Shown here: piece by piece, positions 36,784-61,639 of the stretch
Position numbering within the stretch: position 1 is the stretch's first letter
Layout of the letters: the number at the start of each line of letters is the position of its first letter
Source: Escherichia coli
GTDB taxonomy: Bacteria > Pseudomonadota > Gammaproteobacteria > Enterobacterales > Enterobacteriaceae
Assembly (NCBI RefSeq): GCF_003790525.1
Contig: NZ_CP033635.1
Strand: one strand, 5' to 3'
Length of the DNA: 64,000 nt
Notes under the pieces: model-generated
What the model was told of the DNA's origin: nothing
Seen by the model: the letters and a program-made list of their open reading frames with translations, nothing else
Databases searched by the model: none
Translations under genes and position numbers: made by a program

Positions 36784-36818
36784 AAGAAATCTCCGCGCTG
36801 AAAGGCGCAGAGAATCTA

Positions 36819-38186: not shown

Positions 38187-38221
38187 AATGATGTCCTCAC
38201 GAGGATGTTAAAGTTTTATTA

Positions 38222-39541: not shown

Positions 39542-39555
39542 TGACTCCTTTACTG

Positions 39556-40956: not shown

Positions 40957-41089
40957 CCCTTCACTCCTTTTAAAGTAAATTTGATCATCTGAATCAGTAA
41001 AATAAATTCCCACGAATTTGGGGCGCAGGACGCCTTGAGAACGGCTTATCTCATTTTCGCAGTCACTATTTAGTCATCGTCCAAACAGA

Positions 41090-41111
41090 GAAACAGGCCG
41101 CCGAAGCGGCC
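41090..41111 (-). terminator. Terminator hairpin after xdhD
   Basis: ggccgccgaagcggcc palindrome 10 nt 3' of the xdhD stop, flanked by T-rich sequence on both strands. Confidence 0.4.
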
Positions 41112-41120
41112 ATTTATTAT

Positions 41121-44767: not shown

Positions 44768-44817
44768 CGTCTTTCCTTAATTTCCCCTCTTCTCTGAAAG
44801 AAGAGGGGAGCTGTTAT

Positions 44818-46146: not shown

Positions 46147-46148
46147 GA

Positions 46149-49100
46149 TTACACCTCCACGCGGCCCAGCAGATAATGATGATGCTGGTGGACATGGCTG
46201 ATGATACGGCACATATCGTTCAGCTCCGGTGGTACGTTGTTGAACTGACCTTCGCTGTCGATGTTTAACACCCAGCTTTGGTTATTCAGACGTACGCGTA
46301 CCCGGCAATCTTCCACAAGGAAGCCTGGGTTGCTGCTGTTATCAAAGTCTTGCGACAGGCTGAAGACGGTGATTTTGTCTTTGTACGGTTTACCGTTCCA
46401 CGGGCAGAATTGGGCGCAGTTGCCGCATTCGTTGCAGTAGGCATCGAGATGCAGCGTCTGGAAACGGTTCTGGAAGCCAGGAACCGCAATGGAGACGTTG
46501 GCGCGGTTCGGGCAGACATCCACACACTTGCTGCAAACGTAGTTACATTCAAGGCAGCGTGCGGCTTCCTGGGCGACAAACGCGTCACGATCGTCACTGT
46601 TCACCAGAGTGATAGAGATATCGCCTTTACGTTGATAGATTTCCGCCGGATTGACGTTGTTCCAGTATTTATCGTTCTGGTGGGAACGGATATTTTCCCG
46701 ACTCAGGATTGCATCGGTCGCCCGACGCGCGGTTCCGACAGCAGCGACAATGGAGGATGGTCCGCGCTGTACGTCGCCGATCATAAAGACGTCAGTCAGA
46801 CGCGTTTCGCCATTATGGTCGACGTCTGGCCAGCCGTTTTTGTCCAGCGGCACGCCCATTGCATTCAGGGCTTCAGTATCCTGCTGTTCACCAATGGCGG
46901 TGATCAGGCTGTCTACATGCAGCGTTACTGTTTCGTTGGTTTCAACCGGACGGCGACGACCTTTCTCATCAGGTTCGCCAAGCGACATAACGCGCAAGGT
47001 TAAGGTGCCATCAGCATCGAAACGTTCCGGATTATTCAGAAAACGGAACTCCACGCCGTCGTGCAACGCTTCTTCATACTCTTCGCGCCATGCTGGCATC
47101 TCTTGCAGTGAACGACGGTAAACGACCGTTGCTTTTTCTACGCCTGGAACGCGTAACGCCGCACGAGCGCAGTCCATTGCGGTGTTACCCGCCCCGACAA
47201 CGACCACATGTTTGCCCAGCTTGAGCGCGGTGCCCTTGTTGTATTCACGCAGGAAGGGGAGTGATTTCCAGACATTTTGGTTGTCGCCCGCCAGTTTCAC
47301 ACCGCTATTTTTATCGGTACCGGTGGCAATCAGAACATAGTGGAAGCCCTGATTTTTTAACTGTTCGACGGTCAGATCCGGTGAGCAGCCATACTCAAAT
47401 TTCACGCCGTGAGCGGCAACAAAATCGATATCGTGCTGAATTAACTCTGCAGGAATACGGAACTGAGGAATGATATTTTTCACCACGCCGCCCGCATTGG
47501 CTTCGCGTTCAAACAGCGTAACCGGATGGCCCGCTCTGGCAAGGAAGTAACCTGCTGCCAGACCCGCCGGACCTGCACCAATCACGGCAACCGGATGGCG
47601 TGAACCAGAACCGGCTGGTTTGTGCCAGCGTTGCTTATATTCATCCCAACCTTTTTCCAGCGCGACTTTTTTCAGTTCGCGGATATTCAGCGCACTGTCG
47701 TAATCCAGGCGAGTACAGTTGTATTGGCACTGGTGATCGCAAATATGACCGGTAATGGCGGGCAGGGCGTTTCGTTGATAGATGAGTTCCAGCGCGTCGG
47801 CATAGCGGTGTTCGCCAAGCAGACGGATGTATTCCGGAATATCTTGCTTGATAGCGCAGGCAGTAACACAGGGGGCAACGTAGCAATCGGTCAGCGGCAG
47901 GTCTTCAGCCACTTCAATACGCTCTTCTGGCTTCCAGTGTTTCTGGGTGTATTCCATGGTTAACGCATCTGCTGCCAGTCTGTTCAGTCGTTCGACGTCA
48001 ACATGGTCAAGTCCCCAGGCGTTGGAGCCTTCCAGCTCGCGCATGCAGGCACTTAAGCGCAGATAGCCGCCAGGTTTCAGCAGGTCGGTTGCCATAGTAA
48101 TAGGGCGAATACCAGTATCAAAAATATCGCGGATAGTCAGCTGACTGGCACCACCGGAATAAGAAATGGGCAGTTTGCCGTCAAAGGCGCGAGAGAGAAC
48201 TGCTGCAACGTTGATGGAGAGCGGGAACAGCGCACGGCCTGACATATACATCTCTTCACCAGGCAGTGCGCCTTTATTGTTGATGGTGCCGAGAGTGTTA
48301 GTCAGTTTTACGCCAAAGCCGAGTGATTTTTCTTTTGCCAGTGCCATCAGGCGTTCCAGCATTTCCAGCGCTTGCGTCAGCTTGAGGTCGTGATCAAATG
48401 ACTCTTCTTTTAAGCCTATGTAACCGAAACCGCAGACATCAAGGATCTCACGAACACGCGCGTACCCCAGTAAGGTCGGGTTGAGTTTCACAAAGGTATT
48501 GAGCCCTTTTTCTTCCAGCATGTAGCGGCAAATGGCTTCGATTTCATGCGGAGGACAGCCGTGCATGGTGGAGAGGGTAACACCTTGTACCATGCTGGTG
48601 GGGATGCGAGCGGGTAAGGCTTGCAAGCTTTCGCGTTTTTCCTGTAAGCCGTGGCGGGCTAAAAATGCCTCATCCTGGAGTAGCTTATTAAGTGCATCGC
48701 GGTATTGAGCGAATTTCGGATGGTCAGATGCGTCCATCATATTGTCGATGAACTGCTGCATCGGCGGTTGCTTAATACCTTCGAGGTTGTAACCGACGCT
48801 CATATTAAAGATGAACGATTTACCGGAATCAGAAGGCTGGAACATCGCTTCGAGAAGGTGCAGGGCAAACCAGGCTTTGAGGTATTCATCCCAGGCTTTA
48901 AGCAGGGTAAATTCGGTAGACCATTCGGTGTTAAAGCACTCGTCTTCGGCATCGATACAGGGCTTTTCCAGCTCCAGGCGGTCAAGAATTTGGACGGTTT
49001 TTAGTTCGATGAAGCGTCCGCCAGTCAGCCAGGAAGTGACAATATTTTGCGCGAGCTGCGTGTGCGGGCCAGCGGCAGGGCCGACGGGAGTGGCACAGGT

Positions 49101-49247
49101 TTCACCGAAGACGCTAACAGTTTTACCTTTTACAGGTGAGTAAAACTGTTGCTCGGGAATACCAAAGATTGAGCGTTGTTGTTGGTATTCATCAAATATG
49201 CGCGTCAAAAGTTCCTCAAACGGAATGGGACGCATAATATCCCCCAT
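46149..49247 (-). CDS. ygfK: Large Fe-S/FAD oxidoreductase YgfK (putative selenate reductase component)
   Basis: 1032-aa ORF MGDIMRPIPFEELLTRIFDEYQQ with SD ggagag; Cys clusters and GAGPAGL NAD/FAD fold. Confidence 0.88.
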   Translation of the reverse strand: MGDIMRPIPFEELLTRIFDEYQQQRSIFGIPEQQFYSPVKGKTVSVFGETCATPVGPAAGPHTQLAQNIVTSWLTGGRFIELKTVQILDRLELEKPCIDAEDECFNTEWSTEFTLLKAWDEYLKAWFALHLLEAMFQPSDSGKSFIFNMSVGYNLEGIKQPPMQQFIDNMMDASDHPKFAQYRDALNKLLQDEAFLARHGLQEKRESLQALPARIPTSMVQGVTLSTMHGCPPHEIEAICRYMLEEKGLNTFVKLNPTLLGYARVREILDVCGFGYIGLKEESFDHDLKLTQALEMLERLMALAKEKSLGFGVKLTNTLGTINNKGALPGEEMYMSGRALFPLSINVAAVLSRAFDGKLPISYSGGASQLTIRDIFDTGIRPITMATDLLKPGGYLRLSACMRELEGSNAWGLDHVDVERLNRLAADALTMEYTQKHWKPEERIEVAEDLPLTDCYVAPCVTACAIKQDIPEYIRLLGEHRYADALELIYQRNALPAITGHICDHQCQYNCTRLDYDSALNIRELKKVALEKGWDEYKQRWHKPAGSGSRHPVAVIGAGPAGLAAGYFLARAGHPVTLFEREANAGGVVKNIIPQFRIPAELIQHDIDFVAAHGVKFEYGCSPDLTVEQLKNQGFHYVLIATGTDKNSGVKLAGDNQNVWKSLPFLREYNKGTALKLGKHVVVVGAGNTAMDCARAALRVPGVEKATVVYRRSLQEMPAWREEYEEALHDGVEFRFLNNPERFDADGTLTLRVMSLGEPDEKGRRRPVETNETVTLHVDSLITAIGEQQDTEALNAMGVPLDKNGWPDVDHNGETRLTDVFMIGDVQRGPSSIVAAVGTARRATDAILSRENIRSHQNDKYWNNVNPAEIYQRKGDISITLVNSDDRDAFVAQEAARCLECNYVCSKCVDVCPNRANVSIAVPGFQNRFQTLHLDAYCNECGNCAQFCPWNGKPYKDKITVFSLSQDFDNSSNPGFLVEDCRVRVRLNNQSWVLNIDSEGQFNNVPPELNDMCRIISHVHQHHHYLLGRVEV

Positions 49248-49568
49248 AACCCTCTCCTTAGCTTATACAGATATCATTGAGTGACCGGTGTTGAGAAATC
49301 CGGTGGTTTAGGGGGATAGAGCAACAATCGCACCACTCTTGCCAGGTTTGGCGGGAAATATAAAAAAATGTGAGGCGGCTCGAAACTTAATGGCTTTTTG
49401 TGAATGAACTCACAGGTGCCAAATGAGAATTAAAATCACTCCTGAAAATTATTATTGCCAGCACATTTATCACTTTTTCTCTTTTCTCAAAATCAGTGAT
49501 TCCTTATCATTATGATAAAGAGTGCAGGAGGGATTAAATATTTGAACGCAATCGTTTAACTACGTTTT

Positions 49569-50147
49569 CTAAATTTCAGTATACCTTTTCTTCGCTGTAA
49601 TAAAGTCGTCAGGAGTATCAATATCTAAAATTATTTCTGCATTTTCTATTTCGACGGAATAATGTTCTCCCATAAGGAGTGCCTGACGCATATTGGTGAC
49701 ATTGGGTCGCTGGATTGCCTGCATCAGGCATGGTTTTGACACTAAAATCGGATGGCCGGGGATGCCATTATGGAGTGGCAGTATTGCGCCATCATTTCGT
49801 AACGACCAGATTTTTCTAAAAATATCGATGGTGAGGGTTGGCATATCTCCGTGGGTGAGAAAACAATGTTCTGTTTGCACCGCGGGTACTGCGGCCTTTA
49901 CTGATGTCAGTAAACCCTGCGCATAATCTGGGTTGTGGATAATAGTGATATTGCTCTGGTTCGCATAACGTTCGTGCAGTTCATTACCACGATAGCCGGT
50001 GACTAAAATAATTCGGCTACAAAACTGCAACGCATTTTTGATACTTGTATCAAGAATTGTTCCCTGTTGCCAGGGTAACATCATTTTCCATTGCCCCATT
50101 CTTGATGATAATCCTGCGGCGGTAATTATACAGTCGATGGCTGACAT
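49569..50147 (-). CDS. mocA: Molybdenum cofactor cytidylyltransferase (MobA-like NTP transferase)
   Basis: 192-aa ORF MSAIDCIITAAGLSSRMGQWKMMLPW. Confidence 0.85.
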   Translation of the reverse strand: MSAIDCIITAAGLSSRMGQWKMMLPWQQGTILDTSIKNALQFCSRIILVTGYRGNELHERYANQSNITIIHNPDYAQGLLTSVKAAVPAVQTEHCFLTHGDMPTLTIDIFRKIWSLRNDGAILPLHNGIPGHPILVSKPCLMQAIQRPNVTNMRQALLMGEHYSVEIENAEIILDIDTPDDFITAKKRYTEI

Positions 50148-50250
50148 AGTGATTCCATTATTTACAGGAGCTAATAACGCCTGATAATTGCGTTACTTCC
50201 TGATGGATTAAGTTGAGGGTAATTTATCCCAGAGAGGTCCATAAAGACGC

Positions 50251-51021
50251 GTGAAAAGTATAATTGACCCATCGGCATTATTCATTGATTTAGGCGCGCA
50301 GAAACGTCCCACTGTGATTTCTGTTGTTGGGGCTGGGGGGAAAACCAGCTTGCTTTTTTGGCTGGCAGAACTGCTCCAGGCTAGCGGCAGGCGTGTGTTA
50401 ATCACTACGACGACACATATGTTTATGCCAACGTCTCACTGGCCCGTGGTTTTCTGTCGTGATCCCGCCATGCTTCCTCATGCGTCTTTTATATCCCCCA
50501 TTTTATTTTGTTTTCACAGCTGGAAAGCGAACCAGGGAAAAGTGCAGGGATTTACGCCAGAAGCGATTGATGCACTGGTGCAACGACCAGAGTGTGACGT
50601 AATTCTCATTGAGGCAGATGGCTCGCGTGGAATGCCGTTAAAAGCGCCTGATGAGCACGAACCTTGCATACCTAAAAGCAGTTGCTGCGTGATTGCTGTG
50701 ATGGGAGGACATATTTTGGGTGCGAAAGTGAGCACAGAAAATGTCCATCGCTGGTCGCAGTTTGCTGATATTACTGGGTTAACACCTGATGCACCCTTGC
50801 AACTGAGCGATCTCGTTGCGCTGGTTCGCCACCCTCAGGGGGCGTTTAAAAACGTACCGCAAGGTTGTCGGCGAGTCTGGTTCATTAACCGTTTTTCTCA
50901 ATGTGAGAATGCGATTGCGCAAAGCGAGCTCCTTCAACCGCTGCAACAACACAACGTAGAGGCAATCTGGCTGGGCGATATACAAGAACATCCTGCAATC
51001 GCGCGCAGATTTGTGAATTAG
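50251..51021 (+). CDS. yqeC: Selenium-dependent molybdenum hydroxylase system accessory protein YqeC
   Basis: 256-aa ORF with GTG start and P-loop-like VVGAGGKTS. Confidence 0.8.
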   Translation: MKSIIDPSALFIDLGAQKRPTVISVVGAGGKTSLLFWLAELLQASGRRVLITTTTHMFMPTSHWPVVFCRDPAMLPHASFISPILFCFHSWKANQGKVQGFTPEAIDALVQRPECDVILIEADGSRGMPLKAPDEHEPCIPKSSCCVIAVMGGHILGAKVSTENVHRWSQFADITGLTPDAPLQLSDLVALVRHPQGAFKNVPQGCRRVWFINRFSQCENAIAQSELLQPLQQHNVEAIWLGDIQEHPAIARRFVN

Positions 51022-51068
51022 CGGCCCGGGTATTCCGGGTTACTGAAAGGATATCCATTGAGGTTGGT

Positions 51069-52694
51069 ATGAATATTTTCACAGAGGCTGCAAAACTCGA
51101 AGAACAAAATTGTCCGTTTGCGATGGCGCAAATTGTTGATAGCCGAGGCTCAACCCCCCGCCATTCTGCACAAATGTTAGTGCGCGCCGATGGCTCTATC
51201 GTCGGTACAATTGGTGGCGGAATGGTTGAGCGGAAGGTGATTGAAGAGTCGCTTCAGGCATTGCAGGAACGTAAGCCGCGATTATTCCATGGACGTATGG
51301 CTCGTAACGGTGCGGATGCTGTCGGGTCAGATTGTGGAGGTGCAATGTCAGTATTTATCAGCGTCCATGGTATGCGTCCACGTCTGGTGTTGATTGGCGC
51401 GGGGCATGTCAACCGGGCGATAGCCCAGAGTGCGGCGCTATTAGGATTTGATATCGCCGTTGCCGATATTTATCGCGAAAGCCTCAATCCTGAACTATTC
51501 CCACCATCAACCACGCTTCTCCATGCTGAGTCGTTTGGTGCGGCAGTGGAAGCACTGGATATTCGCCCTGATAATTTTGTCCTGATTGCCACGAATAATC
51601 AGGATCGTGAAGCCCTCGACAAACTCATTGAACAACCCATTGCATGGCTGGGGTTGCTGGCAAGTCGCCGCAAGGTTCAGCTTTTCCTGCGCCAATTGCG
51701 TGAGAAAGGCGTGGCTGAAGAACATATTGCCCGTTTACATGCGCCCGTTGGTTACAACATAGGTGCGGAAACGCCGCAGGAGATCGCCATCAGCGTGCTG
51801 GCAGAAATATTACAGGTGAAAAATAACGCGCCGGGTGGGCTGATGATGAAGCCTTCTCATCCTTCCGGACACCAGCTGGTGGTGATTCGCGGTGCGGGGG
51901 ATATCGCCAGTGGTGTAGCGCTACGTCTGTATCATGCGGGTTTTAAAGTGATCATGCTGGAAGTGGAAAAACCGACAGTGATTCGTTGTACCGTGGCATT
52001 TGCCCAGGCCGTGTTCGATGGCGAAATGACGGTCGAAGGCGTCACCGCCCGCCTGGCAACCAGCTCTGCGGAGGCGATGAAACTTACCGAACGCGGATTC
52101 ATCCCTGTGATAGTAGATCCCGCCTGTTCATTGCTTGATGAACTGAAACCGCTTTGCGTGGTGGACGCTATTCTGGCGAAACAGAATTTGGGAACGCGGG
52201 CAGATATGGCACCAGTAACAATCGCGCTTGGGCCGGGCTTTACTGCAGGGAAGGATTGTCATGCGGTAATTGAAACAAATCGCGGGCACTGGCTCGGTCA
52301 GGTGATTTACTCTGGTTGTGCGCAGGAGAATACCGGTGTTCCTGGCAATATTATGGGGCATACCACCCGACGGGTGATCCGTGCTCCTGCTGCAGGCATT
52401 ATGCGATCCAACGTGAAATTAGGCGATCTGGTGAAAGAGGGCGATGTGATTGCCTGGATTGGTGAGCATGAAATTAAAGCACCGTTGACGGGGATGGTGC
52501 GTGGCTTGTTGAACGACGGACTGGCAGTGGTCGGTGGTTTTAAAATTGGTGATATCGATCCTCGTGGTGAAACGGCTGATTTCACCAGCGTTTCTGATAA
52601 AGCCCGGGCGATTGGCGGCGGCGTACTTGAGGCGTTAATGATGTTGATGCATCAGGGCGTTAAAGCGACAAAAGAAGTGCTGGAAGTGGCTTAA
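51069..52694 (+). CDS. yqeB: XdhC/CoxI-family maturation protein YqeB (selenium-dependent molybdenum hydroxylase system)
   Basis: 541-aa ORF MNIFTEAAKLEEQNCPFAMAQIVDSRGSTPRH. Confidence 0.85.
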   Translation: MNIFTEAAKLEEQNCPFAMAQIVDSRGSTPRHSAQMLVRADGSIVGTIGGGMVERKVIEESLQALQERKPRLFHGRMARNGADAVGSDCGGAMSVFISVHGMRPRLVLIGAGHVNRAIAQSAALLGFDIAVADIYRESLNPELFPPSTTLLHAESFGAAVEALDIRPDNFVLIATNNQDREALDKLIEQPIAWLGLLASRRKVQLFLRQLREKGVAEEHIARLHAPVGYNIGAETPQEIAISVLAEILQVKNNAPGGLMMKPSHPSGHQLVVIRGAGDIASGVALRLYHAGFKVIMLEVEKPTVIRCTVAFAQAVFDGEMTVEGVTARLATSSAEAMKLTERGFIPVIVDPACSLLDELKPLCVVDAILAKQNLGTRADMAPVTIALGPGFTAGKDCHAVIETNRGHWLGQVIYSGCAQENTGVPGNIMGHTTRRVIRAPAAGIMRSNVKLGDLVKEGDVIAWIGEHEIKAPLTGMVRGLLNDGLAVVGGFKIGDIDPRGETADFTSVSDKARAIGGGVLEALMMLMHQGVKATKEVLEVA

Positions 52695-52699
52695 ATGAA

Positions 52700-52733
52700 A
52701 ATGGCCGGATGGTATTACCCATCCGGCCTTTAA
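52700..52733. terminator. Bidirectional terminator hairpin between convergent yqeB and yqeA
   Basis: ggccggatgg-tatta-cccatccggcc hairpin flanked by A/T runs. Confidence 0.5.
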
Positions 52734-52734
52734 A

Positions 52735-53667
52735 TTACTGACAAATCACCGTTCCGGTTTTGCCTTCAATCCCTTCTTTCGCTTTGCTCAATACGGTAAT
52801 CAGTGCTTCACGACCTGCGCGAGAGCGAGCAAACGAGGCGGCAGCTTCCACTTTAGGCAGCATAGAACCTTTCGCAAAATGACCTTCTTCGATAAAGCGT
52901 TCAGCATCACTTAACGACAGGCGATCGAGCCACTGTTCATTCTCTTTTCCGAAGTTAATGGCCACTTTTTCTACCGCAGTCAGAATGATCAGCATATCGG
53001 CATCGATCATTTCTGCTAAACGGGCGCTGGCCCAGTCTTTATCGATAACCGCGCTGGCACCACGCAGATGGTTACCTTCACGAATAACAGGGATACCACC
53101 ACCGCCAACGGTGATCACCACCTGTCCGGCATCTACCAGCGCTTTAACCGTTTCTTTTTCAATGATATCAACCGGTTTTGGCGAAGCAACGACACGACGA
53201 TAGCCGCGACCAGCATCTTCTTTCAGGGTGTAGCCCTGTTTTGTCAGTTGCTCTGCTTCTTGCTCGGTAAAGAATGAACCGATCGGCTTGGTCGGGTTGA
53301 GGAATGCCGGGTCGTTAGCATCGACTTCGACCTGGGTAACCAGCGTTGCTACAGGTTTATTAATGCCCCGAGAAAGCAGTTCTTCTCTTAAAGCGTTTTG
53401 TAGATCGTAACCAATATAACCCTGGCTTAATGCAACACAGACAGACATCGGCAGCATTGGCGAGTGCGCTTCAGTTTTTGCGGCAGCTTCAAAGGCCTGG
53501 TTAATCATGCCCACCTGCGGCCCGTTACCATGAGTGACGATAACTTCATGTCCCTGGGCAATTAAATCAACAATTGCCTGAGAAGTAATTTTTACCGCTT
53601 TCATTTGTCCGGCCAGGTCATCGCCCAGCGCATTCCCGCCCAGGGCGAGAACAATTTTCTTACTCAT
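52735..53667 (-). CDS. yqeA: Carbamate kinase-like protein
   Basis: 310-aa ORF MSKKIVLALGGNALGDDLAGQMKAV, amino-acid kinase fold. Confidence 0.88.
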   Translation of the reverse strand: MSKKIVLALGGNALGDDLAGQMKAVKITSQAIVDLIAQGHEVIVTHGNGPQVGMINQAFEAAAKTEAHSPMLPMSVCVALSQGYIGYDLQNALREELLSRGINKPVATLVTQVEVDANDPAFLNPTKPIGSFFTEQEAEQLTKQGYTLKEDAGRGYRRVVASPKPVDIIEKETVKALVDAGQVVITVGGGGIPVIREGNHLRGASAVIDKDWASARLAEMIDADMLIILTAVEKVAINFGKENEQWLDRLSLSDAERFIEEGHFAKGSMLPKVEAAASFARSRAGREALITVLSKAKEGIEGKTGTVICQ

Positions 53668-53714
53668 TTTTCCTCACTCATCATTCTTGATTGTGTATAG
53701 ATCCCTGGCAGTGG

Positions 53715-55100
53715 TTAGAGCACGGGAGGGACAAACGGTTTGCGTCGCAGGAAACGACCTCGCCCGGCTTTGCCTGTAAAGGTGCCGTCACAGAAAATCG
53801 TTTCACCACGGGATAAGGTTCTGACAATCGCGCCCTGACAGGTAAAACCCTCCCATGGCGAGTAGTCGGCGTTGTCGTGGAGATGGCGATGCTGAATTTG
53901 TTGGCTCTGACGTGGGTCGATAATCACCACGTCGCCATCGGAACCGGGCGCTAATAATCCTTTTTGCGGCCACAGGCCAAACAGCCTGGCGGGCATTGCG
54001 CTGGTTAATTCAACAAAGCGTTCCGGTGTTATACGTCCCGTCATTACGCCACTGGAAAACAGTAACTGCATGCGGTTTTCCACACCGGGTAAGCCATTTG
54101 GGCAGCGACTGAAATCGCCTTTAGAAATTTGCAGGCGTTGAGCCATCGAGAACGTGCAGTGATCGGTCGCTACCACGTCAATCGCACCATCGCTGATGCC
54201 ACACCACAGTTTGTCCTGCTCGCGTACGTTACGCAGCGGTGGGCTAAGAATGAACTTCATGCCATCTTCTGTATCGTAACTGCGTTCGTCCAACAGGAGA
54301 TATTGTGGGCAGGTTTCAACCCAGACTGGCTGGTGATTCGCACGGGCAAGACGCAGATAATCCAGACCTAAGCCGTTAGACAGGTGCACGATATAGAGCG
54401 GGGCGTTACCGGCAATTTGTGCCAGGTTAATCATGCGGGCGATGGCTTCCGCTTCGCATTCCAGAGGGCGACTCAAGGCGTGATAGCGCGGCGCGGTTAA
54501 CCCTGCGGCGATAAACTCCGCCCGCTTGCTGGCGATAGCCGCATCATTTTCCGGGTGCACGGTGGTCAGCGCGCCGGATTCATGCAGACGGCGTAATGCC
54601 TGCAACACTTCATCATCGTTGAGTTTGTATTGATAGGTTAAATAGAGTTTAAAACTGCTCAGCCCTTCCTCGACCATCATCGGGATTTCGTCGAGGATGG
54701 CGTGATTAATGTGCTGGATCACACCGTGAAAGCTGTAGTCGATGACCGCCTTATGGGCGGCATAACCACGATAAACCTCCAGTTGATGGCGTAACCGGCA
54801 GCCATTCGGGCCAAATCCCATATGGTCAATAATGGTTGTTGTACCGCCACACGCAGCTGCGCGGGTACCGGTAAAAAAATCATCACAACTGCGCGCGATG
54901 CCGACATCAATATTGAAATGCGTATGGACATCCACGCCGCCAGGGAAAACGTAACAGCCAGTGGCATCAATTTCTTCATACGGGAGCTGCGGCGAAATAT
55001 TGTTGCCCAACTGGCGAACAATCCCGCTTTCAATCAGCAAATCCTGTTTGGCTTGTCCATCTGCGTTAACGACAGTGCCGTTTTTGATCAATACGCGCAT
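53715..55100 (-). CDS. hyuA: D-phenylhydantoinase (cyclic amidohydrolase/dihydropyrimidinase family)
   Basis: ORF track 465 aa; trimmed to MRVLIKNGTVVNADGQAKQDLLIESG (461 aa) with SD ggag; metal-binding HTH motif. Confidence 0.85.
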   Translation of the reverse strand: MRVLIKNGTVVNADGQAKQDLLIESGIVRQLGNNISPQLPYEEIDATGCYVFPGGVDVHTHFNIDVGIARSCDDFFTGTRAAACGGTTTIIDHMGFGPNGCRLRHQLEVYRGYAAHKAVIDYSFHGVIQHINHAILDEIPMMVEEGLSSFKLYLTYQYKLNDDEVLQALRRLHESGALTTVHPENDAAIASKRAEFIAAGLTAPRYHALSRPLECEAEAIARMINLAQIAGNAPLYIVHLSNGLGLDYLRLARANHQPVWVETCPQYLLLDERSYDTEDGMKFILSPPLRNVREQDKLWCGISDGAIDVVATDHCTFSMAQRLQISKGDFSRCPNGLPGVENRMQLLFSSGVMTGRITPERFVELTSAMPARLFGLWPQKGLLAPGSDGDVVIIDPRQSQQIQHRHLHDNADYSPWEGFTCQGAIVRTLSRGETIFCDGTFTGKAGRGRFLRRKPFVPPVL

Positions 55101-55110
55101 AGCAAACTCC

Positions 55111-55135
55111 AAAAACCCTCCGGCGAACCGGAGGG
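55111..55135 (-). terminator. Intra-operon Rho-independent terminator/attenuator between ygeY and hyuA
   Basis: Minus strand reads ccctccgg-ttcg-ccggaggg followed by ttttt, then the hyuA SD and ATG. Confidence 0.5.
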
Positions 55136-55152
55136 GAATAAGTGAAGAGTAA

Positions 55153-56364
55153 TTATTCGGTTGCCAGCCAGCTTAACGGGATTGCAGCGTACATCGCGGC
55201 ACAGGTCACCAGGTGAGATTTCCAGGTTTTTTCGTTAGGTGCATGCGCTTCAGGTTCTTTACCCGGGCCAAAGCCGATCACCGGAATGCCGTGACGGCCC
55301 ATGATAGATACGCCGTTAGTTGAGAAGGTCCACTTATCAACAACCGGCGCTTTGCCAAACAGCCCTTCGTAGGCATTCACCAGTGCTTTAACGGTGAAGT
55401 GATCTTCTTCCACTTTCCAGGTCGGGAAGTAGCATTCGGTTGGGTAAACCAGGCCAGTCCAGGACGGACGGTCGTAGTTGTACATAGAAACAACCGCGTT
55501 AGCTTTCTGTACTGCAGGCAGGGCGCGGATTTCGTCCAGCGCGCCTTCCCAGGTTTCGCCCCAGGTCAGACGGCGGTCAATAGAGACGGCGCAGCTATCT
55601 GCTACAGCGCAACGGCTTGGGGATGTGAAGAAGATTTCAGAAACGGTGAGGGTGCCTTTGCCGAGGAATTCGTCATAACCCAGACGTTGGGAGAGTTCTT
55701 GTAATTCGCCAAGAATCGGACCCATTTTGAAAATGGCGTTGTCACCGCGTTCTGGTGCAGAACCGTGGCAGCTAACACCCTGAACATCAATACGAATTTC
55801 CATACGACCGCGCTGACCACGGTATACCTGGCAGTCGGTTGGTTCGGTACTGACCACAAATTCCGGGCGAATGCCGGATTGTTCAATAATGTACTGCCAG
55901 CATAGGCCGTCGCAGTCTTCTTCCTGCACAGTACCGGTAACCAGCAGGGTATATTCATCTTCCAGACCGAGGTCTTTAATGATTTTACCGGCATAAACCA
56001 TAGATGCCATGCCGCCTTCCTGGTCGGAAGTACCGCGACCACCGATCAACTCATCAGTTTCCATGCCTTCGTACGGATCGAAGTCCCAGTTTTTGATGTT
56101 GCCAATGCCGACGGTATCGATATGAGCGTCCATTGCCACCAGACGCGGGCCGTGGCCGATATAACCGAGAACGTTGCCCATCGGGTCGATTTCAACTTTA
56201 TCGAAGCCGACTTTTTCCATCTCTTCTTTAATACGATGTACTACGCGTTTTTCGTCGCAGCTTTCACTGGGAATAGCAACCATGTCGCGCAGGAAGCGAG
56301 TCATGTCCGCCTGGTAATCTTTTGCTTTTTCAAGAATCAGTTTGAATGGAATATTCTTAGCCAT
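55153..56364 (-). CDS. ygeY: M20-family peptidase/deacylase (ArgE/DapE-like)
   Basis: 403-aa [38 protein letters not shown]. Confidence 0.88.
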
Positions 56365-56421
56365 TATTTTTCTCCAGATTTTTTACTCCCCGTTTTGCAG
56401 GGAGCAGTTCCAATAGGGTGA

Positions 56422-57618
56422 TTAAGGTGCTACAGCGTGTTTGCCTTCCCAGACAACTTCGCGGTAGTGCTTCACGTCTGTGTCGCCTTCAGTGCTGATA
56501 ACCAGCACTACGGCATCTTTGTTCAGCGCCAGTTTTTCCATCAGGCTTTGACGTTGCGGGTGATAATGAACCGCTGCGAGAACGCCCAAACCGACAGCGC
56601 CGGATTCACCGGAGATGATGCGCGGGTCGTTGCCGTACGGATTACCCAGCACGCGCATACCTAATGCGGCAACGCTGTCCTGGCAGGAGATGAATTGGGT
56701 GGCGCAGTTACGTAGGATTTCCCAGCCCAGCGGGTTAGGTTCGCCACAGGCCAGGCCCGCCATGATGGTGGCCATATCACCGCCAACGTTGACGATGTCG
56801 CCTTTGACGCCGGAGCGATAAATACAGTCAGCTTTGTCAGGTTCAACAATAATGCTGTGCAGATTTTGCGGGCTGTAGACGTCGACCAGATAACCCAGCA
56901 CACCACCGGCCATTGCACCGACACCAGCTTGCAGCAGAACGTGTGTCGGGGTTACGCCCATTTCACGCATTTGCTCGACGGCTTCATCTGCCAGTGTTGC
57001 GTAGCCTTGCATGATCCAGGTTGGGATTTTGGTGTAACCTTCCCATGCTGTATCCTGTACCACTTCCCAGCCGTGCTGCTGCGCGTGTTGCATGGTCAGG
57101 CGAACGGTATCGTCATAGTTCATATCCGTGACGATGCACTCGGCACCGAGGTTCAGAATGGCGTCAACGCGTTCCTGAGCAGAACCTTTCGGCATGTAAA
57201 TCACCGCATTCTGTCCGAGTTGCTGTGCTGCCCATGCCACACCGCGCCCGTGGTTGCCGTCGGTGGTGGTCGCGAAGGTCATTTTTTCGCCGATGGCATT
57301 TTTCAGATGCTCAAATGACAGCGTTTCGATATCAAGATGATATTTTTCACACAATAATTGAGCGATGGCGTACGCACCGCCGAGCATTTTGAAGGCGTTC
57401 AGACCGAATCGTTTTGATTCGTCTTTGACGAGAATTTTCTTCACACCAAAAAGGTTTGCGAGATCGTCCAGCGCACAAAGCGGTGTTGGGCGATAACCAG
57501 CAATTTTCTGGTGGAACTGGCGCGCCAGTTTGGCCTGGCTTTGCGAAAAGAGCGGTGATGTTTCGCCGTTGAAAAATTTGTTATCGGCGATATCAATCTT
57601 CAATGAGAAAACGGACAT
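56422..57618 (-). CDS. ygeX: Diaminopropionate ammonia-lyase (PLP-dependent)
   Basis: 398-aa ORF MSVFSLKIDIADNKFFNGETSPLF. Confidence 0.88.
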   Translation of the reverse strand: MSVFSLKIDIADNKFFNGETSPLFSQSQAKLARQFHQKIAGYRPTPLCALDDLANLFGVKKILVKDESKRFGLNAFKMLGGAYAIAQLLCEKYHLDIETLSFEHLKNAIGEKMTFATTTDGNHGRGVAWAAQQLGQNAVIYMPKGSAQERVDAILNLGAECIVTDMNYDDTVRLTMQHAQQHGWEVVQDTAWEGYTKIPTWIMQGYATLADEAVEQMREMGVTPTHVLLQAGVGAMAGGVLGYLVDVYSPQNLHSIIVEPDKADCIYRSGVKGDIVNVGGDMATIMAGLACGEPNPLGWEILRNCATQFISCQDSVAALGMRVLGNPYGNDPRIISGESGAVGLGVLAAVHYHPQRQSLMEKLALNKDAVVLVISTEGDTDVKHYREVVWEGKHAVAP

Positions 57619-57675
57619 ATCCTATCCTTTTGGCCTCTGGAAATAGAGGGCCGACCAGCTGATCGGCCCGAGGGG

Positions 57676-58866
57676 TTATTTCACGCGTTCTTGCGCTTCT
57701 TTCAGCAGTTGCTCGAGCAGTGCACCTGGTTTGGCGTATTTACGGGACAGGATCATCGCGGCGATGATATAAGGCTTCCAGCTGGCTTCTTTGTAGGTAG
57801 CGATACGGTATTTTTCGAATACGCCTTCAGTCACTTCACCTTCTTTACAGGATACACCGCTGATATCAGCTGGCAGGCAGTGCATGTACAGGGCTTCGCC
57901 ATCACGGGTCAGTTCCATCATCTCTTCAGTACAATGCCAGTCTTTGTGTTGCGCGTTCTGTGCCAGACACTGTTTTTCCAGTGCTTTTAAGCCTTCGTGA
58001 TCGTTCGCACGCAGCAATTCAGTACGCTCTTCCATCACTTTGTAAGGTGCCCATGACTTCGGATAAACGATGTCTGCGTCTTTGAAGGCTTCTTCCATGC
58101 TGGTGACCTGACGGAAGCTACCGCCGGAGGCTTTAGCATTGTTTTTAGCGACTTCAACGACATCCGGGATCAGGTCGTAGCCTTCCGGATGGGCCAGGGT
58201 GACATCCATACCGAAGCGAGTCATCAGACCGATGATGCCTTGTGGTACAGAGAGCGGTTTGCCATAGCTTGGGGAGTAGGCCCAGGTCATGGCGATTTTT
58301 TTACCTTTCAGGTTTTCCAGTGAACCAAAGTGTTCACGTAACCATGCCAGGTCAGCCATTGACTGAGTCGGGTGGTCAATATCGCATTGCAGGTTCACTA
58401 AAGCCGGACGTTGCGGCAGCACACCCTGCTTGTAACCGTCATCAAGTGCAGCGCCAACTTCACGCATATAGGCGTTGCCTGCGCCCAGATACATATCGTC
58501 GCGAATACCAATAGCGTCGGCGCAGAAGGAGATCATATTGGCGGTTTCACGCACGGTTTCGCCGTGAGCGATTTGTGATTTGCCTTCGTCGAGATCTTGC
58601 TGTGCAAGGCCGAGCAGGTTAAGCGCGGAAGCATAAGAGAAGCGGGTACGGGTGGAGTTGTCGCGGAATACGGAAATACCTAATCCACTATTAAAGACTT
58701 TGGTTGAGATGTTTTCAGCACGCAGTGCTTTTAATGCTGCGGCAACGTCCAGTACTTGTTTCAGTTCATCTGGCGTCTGTTCCCACGTTAACAAAAAATC
58801 TTTCTCGTGAAGGTGAGAGGTCAGCGAATTGATATCCTTAATCAGCTCATTAACAGTTTTCATCAT
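57676..58866 (-). CDS. ygeW: Carbamoyltransferase YgeW (aspartate/ornithine carbamoyltransferase fold; reported as oxamate carbamoyltransferase)
   Basis: 396-aa ORF MMKTVNELIKDINSLTSHLHEKDFLLTWEQ. Confidence 0.88.
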   Translation of the reverse strand: MMKTVNELIKDINSLTSHLHEKDFLLTWEQTPDELKQVLDVAAALKALRAENISTKVFNSGLGISVFRDNSTRTRFSYASALNLLGLAQQDLDEGKSQIAHGETVRETANMISFCADAIGIRDDMYLGAGNAYMREVGAALDDGYKQGVLPQRPALVNLQCDIDHPTQSMADLAWLREHFGSLENLKGKKIAMTWAYSPSYGKPLSVPQGIIGLMTRFGMDVTLAHPEGYDLIPDVVEVAKNNAKASGGSFRQVTSMEEAFKDADIVYPKSWAPYKVMEERTELLRANDHEGLKALEKQCLAQNAQHKDWHCTEEMMELTRDGEALYMHCLPADISGVSCKEGEVTEGVFEKYRIATYKEASWKPYIIAAMILSRKYAKPGALLEQLLKEAQERVK

Positions 58867-58957
58867 AAAGTCCCGGTAGTGGAATGACAGGCAAAGTGGT
58901 TTATTTCACTGTGACTTGCCAAAGTGATTGGTGTTTTCACAGCTATACCTAGGACTA

Positions 58958-58972
58958 ACAATAAGTGTGCCA
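58958..58972 (-). promoter_or_regulatory. Candidate sigma-54 (-24/-12) promoter for ygeW
   Basis: Minus strand reads TGGCAC-ACTTA-TTGT about 95 nt upstream of the ygeW ATG; -24 element is perfect, -12 has GT instead of GC. The adjacent divergent gene ygeV encodes a sigma-54 activator. Confidence 0.3.
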
Positions 58973-59341
58973 GAATTATCCACGCGGCTGCGAAAGGCTA
59001 ATTTGACGGATAATGTGTGGGGTTGATCACAAATTGATGCCAGCTTCCGGTTGTTTGTAAAATACGAAAACGTTTGGCTTTTTTTATCGCGTTATTTATT
59101 TGCTGCTAAGTATCAGAAATAAGATAAAGGGACAGGCGATCTCTCTTCAGTTTGATAAACTCACCGCCGTAATTCTCATATTGATATAGAAATGTGATAT
59201 CTCTTCCATAATTTCATTAGAAAGTGATAAAAATCTTATGTTTTTATCAAAGCCAATTTCGCCTGAGTTAATATCATCATGATCTATGAACCATCAACGT
59301 CTTCAATGATCGACTTTTAAGTAAGTCTGGAAGGTAAAGCT

Positions 59342-61120
59342 ATGGAGCTTGCTACTACGCAGTCAGTATTGATGCAAATTCAACCGACAATTCAGCGTTT
59401 TGCCAGAATGCTTGCCAGCGTTTTGCAGCTTGAGGTTGAGATCGTTGATGAAAACTTGTGTCGCGTCGCCGGAACGGGCGCGTATGGGAAGTTTCTTGGT
59501 CGCCAGTTGAGCGGCAACTCACGCCTGCTCCGCCACGTCCTGGAAACGAAAACTGAAAAAGTTGTGACACAGTCTCGCTTCGATCCCCTTTGTGAAGGTT
59601 GCGATAGTAAAGAAAATTGCCGCGAAAAAGCATTTCTGGGTACGCCTGTCATTTTACAGGATCGTTGTGTTGGAGTGATAAGTTTGATTGCCGTTACCCA
59701 CGAGCAACAAGAGCATATTAGTGATAATTTACGCGAATTTTCTGATTACGTTCGCCATATATCCACCATTTTTGTTTCTAAACTTCTGGAGGATCAGGGA
59801 CCAGGAGATAACATCAGTAAAATATTCGCGACCATGATCGATAATATGGATCAGGGCGTGTTAGTGGTTGATGCTGATAATCGTGTTCAATTTGTTAATC
59901 AGACAGCTTTAAAAACACTCGGTGTTGTACAAAATAATATTATTGGAAAACCAGTTCGTTTCAGACCATTAACATTTGAGAGTAATTTTACCCATGGTCA
60001 TATGCAACATATTGTTTCGTGGGATGATAAAAGTGAATTAATCATTGGTCAGTTGCATAACATCCAGGGCCGACAACTATTTTTAATGGCGTTTCACCAA
60101 TCGCATACCAGTTTTTCTGTAGCAAATGCACCTGATGAACCGCATATTGAACAATTGGTTGGCGAGTGCCGTGTTATGCGGCAATTAAAACGACTCATTA
60201 GCCGTATTGCACCCAGCCCATCCAGCGTTATGGTGGTTGGTGAAAGCGGCACAGGTAAAGAAGTCGTCGCCCGTGCAATCCATAAGTTGAGCGGAAGACG
60301 GAATAAACCCTTTATTGCTATCAACTGTGCCGCGATTCCGGAACAGCTTCTGGAGAGCGAACTGTTCGGTTATGTTAAAGGCGCATTTACTGGCGCTTCT
60401 GCCAACGGTAAAACAGGGTTGATTCAGGCGGCGAATACGGGCACGCTGTTTCTCGATGAAATTGGTGATATGCCATTAATGTTGCAGGCTAAATTACTGC
60501 GCGCTATTGAGGCGCGTGAAATTCTGCCGATTGGTGCCAGTAGCCCAATACAAGTCGACATCCGCATCATTTCTGCAACTAATCAGAATTTGGCCCAGTT
60601 CATTGCTGAAGGTAAATTCCGCGAAGATCTCTTCTACCGACTTAATGTTATCCCGATAACTCTGCCACCGCTGCGTGAACGTCAGGAAGATATTGAATTA
60701 CTGGTGCATTACTTTTTACATCTGCATACCCGTCGTCTGGGATCGGTTTATCCTGGCATTGCTCCTGATGTCGTCGAAATATTGCGTAAGCATCGTTGGC
60801 CCGGAAACCTGCGCGAGTTAAGCAATTTGATGGAATATCTGGTTAACGTGGTTCCTTCAGGTGAAGTTATCGACAGCACGCTATTGCCACCAAATCTGCT
60901 GAATAATGGCACAACGGAGCAAAGTGATGTAACAGAGGTCAGTGAGGCGCACCTGTCACTTGATGATGCGGGCGGCACGGCGCTGGAGGAGATGGAAAAG
61001 CAAATGATCCGCGAGGCGCTTTCACGTCATAACAGCAAGAAGGAAGTTGCTGATGAACTGGGCATCGGCATTGCTACGCTCTATCGCAAGATTAAGAAAT
61101 ATGAGTTGTTAAACACATAA
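59342..61120 (+). CDS. ygeV: Sigma-54-dependent transcriptional activator (sensory domain, AAA+ domain, Fis-type HTH)
   Basis: 592-aa ORF with Walker A GESGTGKE, GAFTGA sigma-54 contact motif and C-terminal HTH. Confidence 0.9.
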   Translation: MELATTQSVLMQIQPTIQRFARMLASVLQLEVEIVDENLCRVAGTGAYGKFLGRQLSGNSRLLRHVLETKTEKVVTQSRFDPLCEGCDSKENCREKAFLGTPVILQDRCVGVISLIAVTHEQQEHISDNLREFSDYVRHISTIFVSKLLEDQGPGDNISKIFATMIDNMDQGVLVVDADNRVQFVNQTALKTLGVVQNNIIGKPVRFRPLTFESNFTHGHMQHIVSWDDKSELIIGQLHNIQGRQLFLMAFHQSHTSFSVANAPDEPHIEQLVGECRVMRQLKRLISRIAPSPSSVMVVGESGTGKEVVARAIHKLSGRRNKPFIAINCAAIPEQLLESELFGYVKGAFTGASANGKTGLIQAANTGTLFLDEIGDMPLMLQAKLLRAIEAREILPIGASSPIQVDIRIISATNQNLAQFIAEGKFREDLFYRLNVIPITLPPLRERQEDIELLVHYFLHLHTRRLGSVYPGIAPDVVEILRKHRWPGNLRELSNLMEYLVNVVPSGEVIDSTLLPPNLLNNGTTEQSDVTEVSEAHLSLDDAGGTALEEMEKQMIREALSRHNSKKEVADELGIGIATLYRKIKKYELLNT

Positions 61121-61129
61121 CCTCAGTGA

Positions 61130-61153
61130 ATCCGGCCTGAATTCAGGCCGGAT
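61130..61153. terminator. Bidirectional terminator hairpin between convergent ygeV and xdhC
   Basis: atccggcctga-at-tcaggccggat palindrome followed by cctttt. Confidence 0.55.
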
Positions 61154-61159
61154 ATCCTT

Positions 61160-61639
61160 TTACTTCGTTTTCTCGCAATCCAGAACTGTATTTACAATCA
61201 TCTGATACCCCGTGCAGCGACAAAGATTTCCCGCCAGTCCGCGACGAATTTCCGTAATGGTTAATGGCTTCTCGCGTGGTTTCGCCAGCATTGCCGTGGT
61301 AGCCATAATCAGGCCAGGCGTACAAAACCCGCACTGCACTGCGCCGGATTTCGCATAAGCCTGCTGAACATGAGAAAGTTTTCCGCCTTTCGCTTCACCT
61401 TCCAGCGTGCGGATCTCTTTTCCTTCAGCCCAGGCGGCAAGGTATAAGCAACTGTCTATTGCTGTGCCGTCGACCAGCACCGTACAGGCACCACATTCAC
61501 CCACGCAGCACCCTTGTTTGACACTTAGCAGTCCTTGTTCGCGGAGTAATTCCGAGAGCGGCGTGCCTGGTGCGGCGTGAAGCTGAAAAGGCATCCCGTT
61601 AATGGTGCATTCGATGGTAATTGTTTCGCTGTGATTCAT
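61160..61639 (-). CDS. xdhC: Xanthine dehydrogenase 2Fe-2S iron-sulfur subunit
   Basis: 159-aa ORF with ferredoxin Cys motifs [11 protein letters not shown] and CGFCTPG. Confidence 0.88.

Follow-up and report, generated by a model that had tools for sequence, protein, structure and literature searches.

Comparative Analysis of the Escherichia coli ygeV-ygeW-ygeX-ygeY-hyuA-yqeA Locus and Its Relation to Anaerobic Urate Breakdown

Introduction

Anaerobic reductive breakdown of uric acid via 2,8-dioxopurine has been described in Escherichia coli K-12, Clostridium sporogenes and C. difficile, and the route was reconstituted from purified proteins of E. coli in two independent studies of 2025 (Liu et al., bioRxiv 10.1101/2025.04.24.650524; Li et al., Life Metab, PMC12507026). 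The locus considered here lies in a 64-kb stretch of E. coli DNA (contig NZ_CP033635.1; hereafter, the window) at positions 52735-61120 (8386 bp). It contains the genes ygeW, ygeX, ygeY, hyuA and yqeA and, divergent from them, the gene ygeV encoding a sigma-54 enhancer-binding protein, and it is the same locus, with the same RefSeq genes, as the one described for the E. coli pathway. All coordinates below are positions in the window.

According to the published biochemistry, XdhD-YgfM first reduces urate to 2,8-dioxopurine ('yanthine'), which YgfK then dearomatizes (Liu et al., bioRxiv 10.1101/2025.04.24.650524; Li et al., PMC12507026). SsnA cleaves open the six-membered ring to give 5-ureidomethyl-hydantoin (Liu et al.; Li et al., PMC12507026), which HyuA converts to 2,3-diureidopropionate, a step agreed upon by Liu et al. 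and Li et al.; HyuA was also reported to open 5-ureido-dihydrouracil to the same product. Phosphorolysis of one of the two ureido groups of 2,3-diureidopropionate by YgeW gives carbamoyl phosphate (Liu et al.; Li et al., PMC12507026), from which YqeA makes ATP with ADP; in vitro, ATP formation requires both YgeW and YqeA (bioRxiv 10.1101/2025.04.24.650524). The other ureido group, that of mono-ureido-diaminopropionate, is hydrolysed by YgeY to give 2,3-diaminopropionate (Liu et al.; Li et al.), and YgeX converts the latter to pyruvate and 2 NH3. In C. difficile, a hydrolase, UacY, is used instead of YgeW and YqeA, so that the ATP is forgone (Li et al., PMC12507026).

Several other systems are related to this locus in part. 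In the arginine deiminase pathway, phosphorolysis of a ureido compound gives carbamoyl phosphate, and carbamate kinase uses it to make ATP, as in the case of YgeW and YqeA; this analogy was drawn by Liu et al. (bioRxiv 10.1101/2025.04.24.650524). Reductive pyrimidine degradation (Pyd) and the industrial hydantoinase-carbamoylase process follow the same logic of reductive dearomatization, ring opening by a cyclic amidohydrolase and cleavage of the ureido group. As for regulation, prpBCDE with PrpR is a sigma-54 catabolic operon with an enhancer-binding protein and CRP. Operons of this type and the studied locus share several traits: the activator gene is divergent, the promoter is of the -24/-12 type, inverted repeats lie far upstream, and catabolite repression occurs.

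Organization and Conservation of the Locus

We assign the locus, with high confidence, to the lower module of the anaerobic reductive uric-acid (2,8-dioxopurine) pathway, accompanied by a dedicated sigma-54 activator. The listing of open reading frames (ORFs) contained five co-oriented ORFs on the minus strand and one divergent ORF on the plus strand, named in RefSeq arcC (= yqeA), hyuA, ygeY, dpaL (= ygeX), ygeW and ygeV (Table 1). The start codons of hyuA and ygeW lie inside the respective ORFs: the hyuA ATG is preceded by GGAG 8 nt upstream, and the second ATG of ygeW is the one kept in other genera. The spacer between the divergent genes ygeV and ygeW is 478 bp long.

Of 5426 complete E. 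coli genomes searched with megablast, 5282 contained the 8386-bp stretch. It was 100% identical in several complete chromosomes, and nearly all other complete E. coli genomes matched it with at least 95% nucleotide identity. In K-12, the gene order, the neighbours and the published sigma-54 sites match those of the window, and nothing functional differs; one base is different in the sigma-54 site of ygfT.

Orthologous loci were gathered via a protein search with the Enterobacter orthologue as a query. The comparison included nine genera, namely Enterobacter, Cedecea, Pluralibacter, Serratia, Kluyvera, Intestinirhabdus, Raoultella, Trabulsiella and Citrobacter ("ten genera" below includes E. 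coli). The same six-gene layout, with ygeV divergent from ygeW-ygeX-ygeY-hyuA-yqeA, was found in 9/9 of them; therefore, the arrangement is not due to chance. The ORF list, RefSeq and this synteny all bear out the arrangement proposed in an earlier, sequence-only reading of the locus.

Table 1. Coordinates of genes, regulatory elements and hairpins in the window. Promoter distances refer to the inferred transcription start.
Feature	Position	Strand	Details
yqeA (arcC), carbamate kinase	52735-53667	-	310 aa; TIGR00746, RefSeq
hyuA, D-hydantoinase	53715-55100	-	ORF to 55112, RefSeq start 55100, 461 aa; TIGR02033
ygeY, M20 (ArgE/DapE-like) amidase	55153-56364	-	403 aa; TIGR03526
ygeX (dpaL), pyridoxal phosphate-dependent 2,3-diaminopropionate ammonia-lyase	56422-57618	-	398 aa; TIGR03528
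ygeW, knotted carbamoyltransferase	57676-58863	-	ORF to 58866, RefSeq start 58863, 395 aa; NF005538
ygeV (isrR), sigma-54 enhancer-binding protein	59342-61120	+	592 aa; Pfam domains
ygeW sigma-54 promoter CTGGCACACTTATTGTT	58957-58973	-	exact match to ChIP-seq site OS30 (PMC4591121)
CRP-like site TGTGATCAACCCCACA	59016-59031		GTGA-N6-TCnCA kept in 10 genera; centre ~-77.5
candidate YgeV enhancer block TATCACATTTCTA, TATCAATATGAGA, TATCAAACTGAAG	59145-59199		palindrome-like sites centred ~-247, -234, -205
stem-loop ygeW/ygeX	57648-57669	-	10/10 genera; compensatory changes in 3/8 pairs (RNAalifold)
stem-loop ygeX/ygeY	56384-56406	-	GC-rich hairpin in 9/10 genera, absent in Kluyvera
stem-loop ygeY/hyuA	55116-55135	-	10/10 genera; compensatory changes in 5/9 pairs (RNAalifold)
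strong bidirectional intrinsic-terminator hairpin after yqeA and convergent yqeB	52703-52728		10-bp stem, 8 GC pairs, T-rich tails on both strands
hairpin between convergent ygeV/xdhC ends	61130-61153		terminator scan
ygfK-ssnA-ygfM-xdhD sigma-54 promoter GTGGTGCGATTGTTGCT	49320-49336	-	outside the locus; exact match to ChIP-seq site OS31; kept in 5 genera
perfect palindrome TATCATAATGATA upstream of ygfK, candidate YgeV operator	49505-49517		outside the locus; ~-202
ygfT sigma-54 site TATGCCCATTTATTGCA	34313-34329	+	outside the locus; ChIP-seq site (PMC4591121), 1 nt off K-12
palindrome-like site TCTCATATTGATA upstream of ygfT	34135-34147		outside the locus; ~-199
ygfK, upper pathway	46149-49247	-	outside the locus; annotation
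ssnA, upper pathway	44818-46146	-	outside the locus; annotation
ygfM, upper pathway	43988-44767	-	outside the locus; annotation
xdhD, upper pathway	41121-43991	-	outside the locus; annotation

Enzymes of the Lower Module

The proteins were scored against NCBIfam models with curated cut-offs, and all five enzymes exceeded theirs, which upheld the identities initially read from the sequence. YqeA was classified as a carbamate kinase (TIGR00746, 385.6 vs. a cut-off of 358), HyuA as a D-hydantoinase/dihydropyrimidinase (TIGR02033, 675 vs. 393), YgeY as a YgeY family hydrolase (TIGR03526, 722 vs. 321), YgeX as a diaminopropionate ammonia-lyase (TIGR03528, 651 vs. 532) and YgeW as a knotted carbamoyltransferase YgeW (NF005538, 825 vs. 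453; TIGR03316, 675 vs. 500). The genes of the M20 hydrolase, the ammonia-lyase, the hydantoinase and the carbamate kinase are contiguous and co-oriented with ygeW, and the same set is present in the nine other genera. Among solved structures, YgeX matched the E. coli diaminopropionate ammonia-lyase 4D9G over its full length (E 2e-274), YgeW matched the E. coli structure 3Q98, and the nearest structures for HyuA were D-hydantoinases (E ~1e-109). No solved structure was found for YgeY, the nearest one being ArgE (7RSF, E 8e-16).

The likeness to the arginine deiminase pathway extends to the protein families: YqeA is an arcC equivalog, and YgeW matches models of ornithine carbamoyltransferase (OTCase). 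However, the substrate of YgeW is 2,3-diureidopropionate, not citrulline, and the enzyme has a knotted equivalog family of its own; its scores were below the equivalog cut-offs for OTCase (TIGR00658, 133 vs. 281) and aspartate carbamoyltransferase (ATCase; TIGR00670, 71 vs. 237). YgeW works like a catabolic OTCase but does not belong to the OTCases or ATCases proper. Similarly, HyuA is a dihydropyrimidinase/D-hydantoinase equivalog, as in the Pyd pathway, whereas the skeleton of the urate route is bicyclic and purine-derived and carries two ureido groups, one of which is removed by phosphorolysis and not by hydrolysis.

The sequence-only reading had taken the five genes for an ATP-yielding breakdown of a purine-derived ureido intermediate, and the synthesis of ATP by YgeW and YqeA from 2,3-diureidopropionate in vitro agrees with this (bioRxiv 10.1101/2025.04.24.650524). 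Purine-catabolism phenotypes of deletions, which it expected, have also been published: labelled acetate from urate was abolished in E. coli deletions of ygeW, ygeX, ygeY and hyuA. Two corrections are needed. Firstly, the intermediates of YgeY and HyuA were described as not firmly assigned, which is out of date: the HyuA substrate is firmly assigned, because both 2025 groups agree, and YgeY acts on mono-ureido diaminopropionate, with the regiochemistry alone disputed. Secondly, the five genes make up the lower module and not the whole pathway. The upper module and transporters (uacT, ygfT, xdhD, ygfM, ssnA and ygfK) are located outside the locus, at 32492-49247, and the upper-module enzymes XdhD-YgfM, YgfK and SsnA are encoded 3-18 kb from it. 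The lower module is thus linked in the window to ssnA, ygfK, xdhD-ygfM and a urate permease gene.

An older interpretation places these genes in a branch of allantoin-type purine catabolism that runs through oxalurate/oxamate, in which YgeW is an oxamate carbamoyltransferase feeding the carbamate kinase, and HyuA and YgeY are a generic hydantoinase-carbamoylase pair. The carbamoyltransferase, carbamate kinase and cyclic amidohydrolase families are compatible with it, oxamate assays were suggested in the sequence-only reading, and a 2013 bioinformatic paper (PMC4016543) used these neighbours to propose a novel route for purines. However, such a branch leaves no role for YgeX, a diaminopropionate lyase. 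The classical intermediates were looked for in mutants and not found (Liu et al., bioRxiv 10.1101/2025.04.24.650524), and the purified E. coli enzymes lead from 2,8-dioxopurine through ureidomethyl-hydantoin, 2,3-diureidopropionate and diaminopropionate to pyruvate. The oxamate branch is scarcely credible and has already been largely refuted; as an assay substrate, oxamate is superseded.

It could also be supposed that the cluster is a stand-alone unit for salvage or detoxification of exogenous 2,3-diaminopropionate, D-hydantoins or N-carbamoyl-D-amino acids, with purine genes adjacent only incidentally. Indeed, HyuA was first characterized as a D-phenylhydantoinase and YgeX as a diaminopropionate ammonia-lyase, and in Citrobacter werkmanii a YgeV paralogue (38%) stands beside only ygeX-like and M20 genes (locus L005). 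This supposition is very improbable in view of the synteny of the cluster with ygfK, ssnA, xdh and purine/urate permease genes in E. coli and distant Firmicutes, the sigma-54 promoters and palindrome common to the cluster and the purine genes, and the block of urate conversion to acetate in the deletions.

Sigma-54 Promoter and CRP-like Site

Chromatin immunoprecipitation sequencing (ChIP-seq) of sigma-54 by Bonocora et al. in 2015 (PMC4591121) revealed sites upstream of ygeW, ygfK, ygfT and xdhA, and a peak of RpoN holoenzyme was found in the ygeV/ygeW spacer by genomic SELEX (systematic evolution of ligands by exponential enrichment). The xdhA site falls just past the end of the window. The ygeW promoter contains a -24 GG and an unusual, non-canonical -12 GT (TTGT); its transcription start was inferred at ~58946, giving a leader of ~83 nt. 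The ygeV-ygeW spacers of the ten genera were aligned, with a mean column identity of ~62%, and TGGCAC-N2-TTATTGTTA of the promoter, including the non-canonical -12 element, was found to be invariant.

When the window was scanned with a generic sigma-54 consensus, matches were not enriched (45 hits vs. 44.9 expected). Therefore, consensus matching alone is no evidence, and the promoter calls rest on the published ChIP-seq data and on conservation. Scans of the window for sigma-70 promoters and terminators were also at chance level overall.

The CRP-like site between the promoter and the distant palindromes is in line with the report of Li et al. (PMC12507026) of a native Crp site in the spacer, the replacement of which bypassed glucose repression. 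Upstream of ygfK (49369-49390), GTTTCGA-N6-CTCACA is kept in five genera. This sequence, located ~-63 to -70 relative to the inferred start, resembles a second site of the CRP type whose relative position equals that of the ygeW site. Upstream of ygfK, TTTTGAGAAA at ~-177 is likewise kept.

Some other conserved elements were noted in this region. In the ygeW leader (58864-58946, ~83 nt), GTCATTCACnACCAGGA just before the start codon is strongly kept in the ten genera; no consensus fold of the leader was supported (-0.94 kcal/mol), and no Rfam family matched within 49000-61500 at E up to 1. ATGATA (TATCAT on the ygeV strand) at 59272-59284, ~65 nt upstream of the ygeV start, is invariant in the ten genera; it is plausibly an autoregulatory half-site or the ygeV promoter's -10 element. 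The ygfT sigma-54 site is one base off the K-12 ChIP-seq sequence (TATGCCCATTTATTGCA vs. ...CCCGTTT...). Note that strain-to-strain differences in urate consumption were ascribed to regulation by Liu et al. (bioRxiv 10.1101/2025.04.24.650524).

Candidate YgeV Operator

A 13-bp palindrome, TATCA-N3-TGATA, precedes each of the four sigma-54 promoters of the locus (ygeW, ygfK, ygfT/uacT and xdhA) by ~150-235 bp. In the candidate upstream activating sequence (UAS) block before ygeW, ATCACAttT..aTaTCAatATGAtAAT and TTATCA..TG are nearly invariant in the ten genera, vs. the ~62% column identity of the spacer. Upstream of ygfK, TTATCA-N3-TGATA is invariant in the five aligned genera and present in all nine loci holding ygfK, and the xdhA upstream region contains TATCA-N3-TGATA twice, 22 bp apart, in three genera. 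The motif recurs in the ygeV-ygeW spacer of every other genus and, if ygfK is present, upstream of that gene.

The distribution of the motif in the 64-kb window was then counted. With at most one mismatch, it had five matches, four of which were in the 1234 bp of three sigma-54 spacers, one in ~59 kb of coding DNA and none in 3612 bp of other intergenic DNA. For the 15-mer with up to two mismatches, nine matches were found vs. 2.25 expected. No enhancer-binding protein other than YgeV is encoded in the locus, and this distribution therefore led us to propose the palindrome as the YgeV operator. The four promoters would then share a common UAS/CRP/sigma-54 design, judging from their sequences. 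Compared with other sigma-54/CRP operons, the ygeW UAS is unusually far upstream (~-200 to -235). A literature search found no report of the palindrome as an operator and no YgeV binding data.

The palindromes could, alternatively, be bound by another factor (Fur-like, FNR-like or a nucleoid protein) or serve the ygeV promoter, while YgeV binds elsewhere or mainly controls indole-dependent virulence genes. The perfect ygfK site overlaps, by inspection, 10 nt that match the Fur consensus, words of this kind are favoured in AT-rich spacers, an indole-responsive action of YgeV (IsrR) on LEE genes has been reported, and the literature search yielded no YgeV binding data. However, the half-sites are oriented in reverse to those of Fur 7-1-7 and FNR, and the central 3 nt are not kept. 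The motif is absent from the other 3.6 kb of intergenic DNA, tracks exactly the four sigma-54 promoters, all of which depend on an activator, with similar spacing (-150 to -235), and co-occurs with ygeV in 10/10 genera, YgeV being the sole enhancer-binding protein encoded there. We consider another factor an unlikely explanation, although it deserves to be kept in mind, and a role of the palindrome as the YgeV operator is preferred here.

Two sets of candidates were rejected. Readings of the TATCA blocks as sites of IHF (WATCAA-N4-TTR), Fur or FNR did not fit in orientation or spacing on inspection. A perfect palindrome TATCAAGATGATA inside ygeX (57330-57342) was not accepted as an operator, its sequence being explained by the codons for KYHLDI; it is not kept at the DNA level outside E. 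coli and Citrobacter and is probably due to chance.

In Kluyvera (locus L085, 11813-11825), Intestinirhabdus (L086, 11794-11806) and Raoultella (L087, 11837-11849), an identical operator-like site TATCACTCTGAGA is located immediately downstream of ygeV and ahead of a gene encoding a 549-aa major facilitator superfamily (MFS) transporter; E. coli does not have this gene there. The transporter may be an extra member of the YgeV regulon.

Domain Structure and Signal of YgeV

Pfam analysis of YgeV revealed the domains Sigma54_activat (PF00158, E 2e-70), AAA_lid_14 and HTH_8 (residues 548-587). The GAFTGA motif (347-352), Walker A (GESGTGKE, 300-307) and Walker B (LFLDE, 369) are intact. With this AAA+ domain, a Fis-type helix-turn-helix (HTH) and a cognate -24/-12 promoter nearby, YgeV has the features of a bacterial enhancer-binding protein, as the sequence-only reading had called it, and its gene faces a sigma-54 promoter verified by ChIP-seq (PMC4591121).

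The N-terminal region (residues 1-270) was modelled using AlphaFold2 on the basis of 17 homologues, with a mean predicted local distance difference test (pLDDT) score of 73. The model predicts a GAF domain followed by a PAS domain, and the best Foldseek matches include the GAF-PAS of E. coli DhaR(N), on which the sensor superposes, and the GAF domain of the Aquifex NifA-like activator Nlh1. The NCBIfam DhaR model matched YgeV over residues 97-589. No receiver domain was found, nor was there a Response_reg match in Pfam; therefore, the published label 'orphan response regulator' does not fit YgeV. The protein was below the cut-off of every named NCBIfam regulator, with PrdR being the best (384 vs. 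795).

YgeV contains a conserved CxxCx5C motif. The triad C84-x2-C87-x5-C93, followed by the invariant Glu95, lies in the GAF domain (residues 84-95, window 59591-59626). The triad with the Glu is kept in 15/17 homologues, and the triad is kept in distant homologues from Firmicutes and Citrobacter werkmanii (L004-L008, 19-26% identity in the N-terminal region), of which L004-L006 adjoin ygeX, ygeW, ygeY, yqeA, ssnA or xanthine dehydrogenase genes. It is absent from two Anaerovorax paralogues without such neighbours. The triad may form a metal, Fe-S or redox site.

Dependence on ygeV, which had been anticipated from the sequence, is known from a second-hand citation: in 2019, Iwadate and Kato reportedly found that both the anaerobic consumption of urate and the expression of ygfT need ygeV. 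Induction by purines, likewise anticipated, has been published for ygfK and ygfT, which are induced by urate in E. coli. YgeV has also been published as IsrR, an indole-responsive regulator of virulence genes.

In C. werkmanii (L005, 7207-11740), the YgeV paralogue is 38% identical over its full length and contains the Cys triad. Its gene is divergent from only a ygeX-like lyase gene (51%) and an M20 peptidase gene (32%). This set may represent an independent module for diaminopropionate or ureido-amino acids, controlled by a related regulator.

Operon Structure and Stem-Loops

The gaps ygeW-ygeX, ygeX-ygeY and ygeY-hyuA are 52-57 nt long in E. coli, and a GC-rich stem-loop was found in each. 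The stem-loops sit at the same positions across genera, and their sequences differ. The ygeY/hyuA hairpin is followed by TTTTT and the hyuA Shine-Dalgarno sequence, the five-T run being present only in E. coli; this hairpin is possibly a weak terminator or an RNA-stabilizing element. The genes hyuA and yqeA are 12-18 nt apart or overlap by 4 nt in other genera. The five genes most likely form a single sigma-54-driven unit, in which the internal hairpins would act as partial terminators or stabilizing 3' ends grading expression.

Neighbouring Genes

In E. coli, yqeA is separated from ygfK by the mocA-yqeC-yqeB trio (window 49569-52694). Instead of this trio, a gene of the XdhC/CoxI family encoding a protein of ~280 aa was found in Enterobacter sp. 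Bisph1 (L003, 2477-3322), Cedecea (L082, 2455-3297) and Serratia (L084, 2466-3299). To judge by these loci, the cofactor-maturation gene content of the locus varies between genera.

Discussion

The core of this finding is already known: the pathway was reconstituted biochemically in 2025 and the sigma-54 promoters had already been mapped. The regulatory details added here are candidates only and represent modest refinements of a known system.

The enzymatic part of the locus operates as published for the K-12 proteins. After reduction of urate to 2,8-dioxopurine, dearomatization and opening of the six-membered ring to 5-ureidomethyl-hydantoin by XdhD-YgfM, YgfK and SsnA, HyuA opens the hydantoin ring to give 2,3-diureidopropionate. 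YgeW phosphorolyses one ureido group to carbamoyl phosphate, which phosphorylates ADP through YqeA, i.e., substrate-level ATP synthesis. YgeY hydrolyses the second ureido group to give 2,3-diaminopropionate, and YgeX converts this to pyruvate and ammonia. Transcription begins at the sigma-54 promoter ~83 nt upstream of ygeW, where RpoN binding is known from ChIP-seq and genomic SELEX. YgeV (GAF-PAS-AAA+-HTH) would bind TATCA-N3-TGATA ~200-235 bp upstream and remodel the closed sigma-54 complex, and the CRP site at ~-77, between the palindromes and the promoter, would provide catabolite control and probably bend the DNA. The same operator and sigma-54 design at ygfK, ygfT/uacT and xdhA would constitute one YgeV regulon. 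The five genes would be read as one unit with three inter-gene stem-loops, ending at the bidirectional terminator.

Several points weigh against parts of this scheme. The regiochemistry of YgeW and YgeY is contradictory between the two biochemical studies. According to Liu et al. (bioRxiv 10.1101/2025.04.24.650524), YgeW takes the 3-ureido group and YgeY the 2-ureido group, while Li et al. (PMC12507026) report the reverse, with albizziin as an intermediate, and a commentary (PMC12990295) lists this as an open question. It is the only enzymatic dispute between the 2025 papers. The version of Liu et al. would be favoured by a family analogy, namely distal-N carbamoyl transfer of the N-acetylornithine carbamoyltransferase (AOTCase) type with a subsequent alpha-N deacylase of the ArgE type, and the D-aminoacylase homologue in place of YgeW in C. 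difficile favours Li et al.; both are arguments and not tests. As for regulation, the -12 element (GT) of the ygeW promoter is non-canonical and its ChIP-seq signal is low in the table of Bonocora et al. (PMC4591121). As for its signal, YgeV has been described both as an indole-responsive virulence regulator and as ethanol-responsive. The sole YgeV dependency found in the literature concerns ygfT expression and urate consumption, as cited second-hand, and not PygeW itself. RegulonDB-style sources list only 'ygeWXY' as a unit, and a terminator-like hairpin with a T-run precedes hyuA.

We give even chances to a combined regulatory model based on sequence comparison. In this model, TATCA-N3-TGATA is the YgeV operator and, together with a CRP site at ~-65 to -78, defines a single urate regulon. 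The GAF domain of YgeV would sense urate, 2,8-dioxopurine or the redox/anaerobic state, CxxCx5C-x-E may hold a metal or Fe-S centre, and the three stem-loops would set the relative levels of YgeW, YgeX, YgeY and HyuA/YqeA.

According to the 2025 studies (Liu et al.; Li et al.), ~1/3 of the urate of humans is removed by gut bacteria carrying the pathway, and serum urate in mice is lowered by an engineered E. coli Nissle that has a promoter placed precisely in the ygeV-ygeW spacer. The medical importance of the pathway has thus already been realized by others. Concrete targets for studying the wiring of YgeV and the architecture of the transcript are offered by the candidate operator, the CRP-like site, the stem-loops and the -12 element, which is non-canonical yet invariant. 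The mapped regulatory elements could help explain strain differences in urate consumption and guide the design of better uricolytic probiotics.

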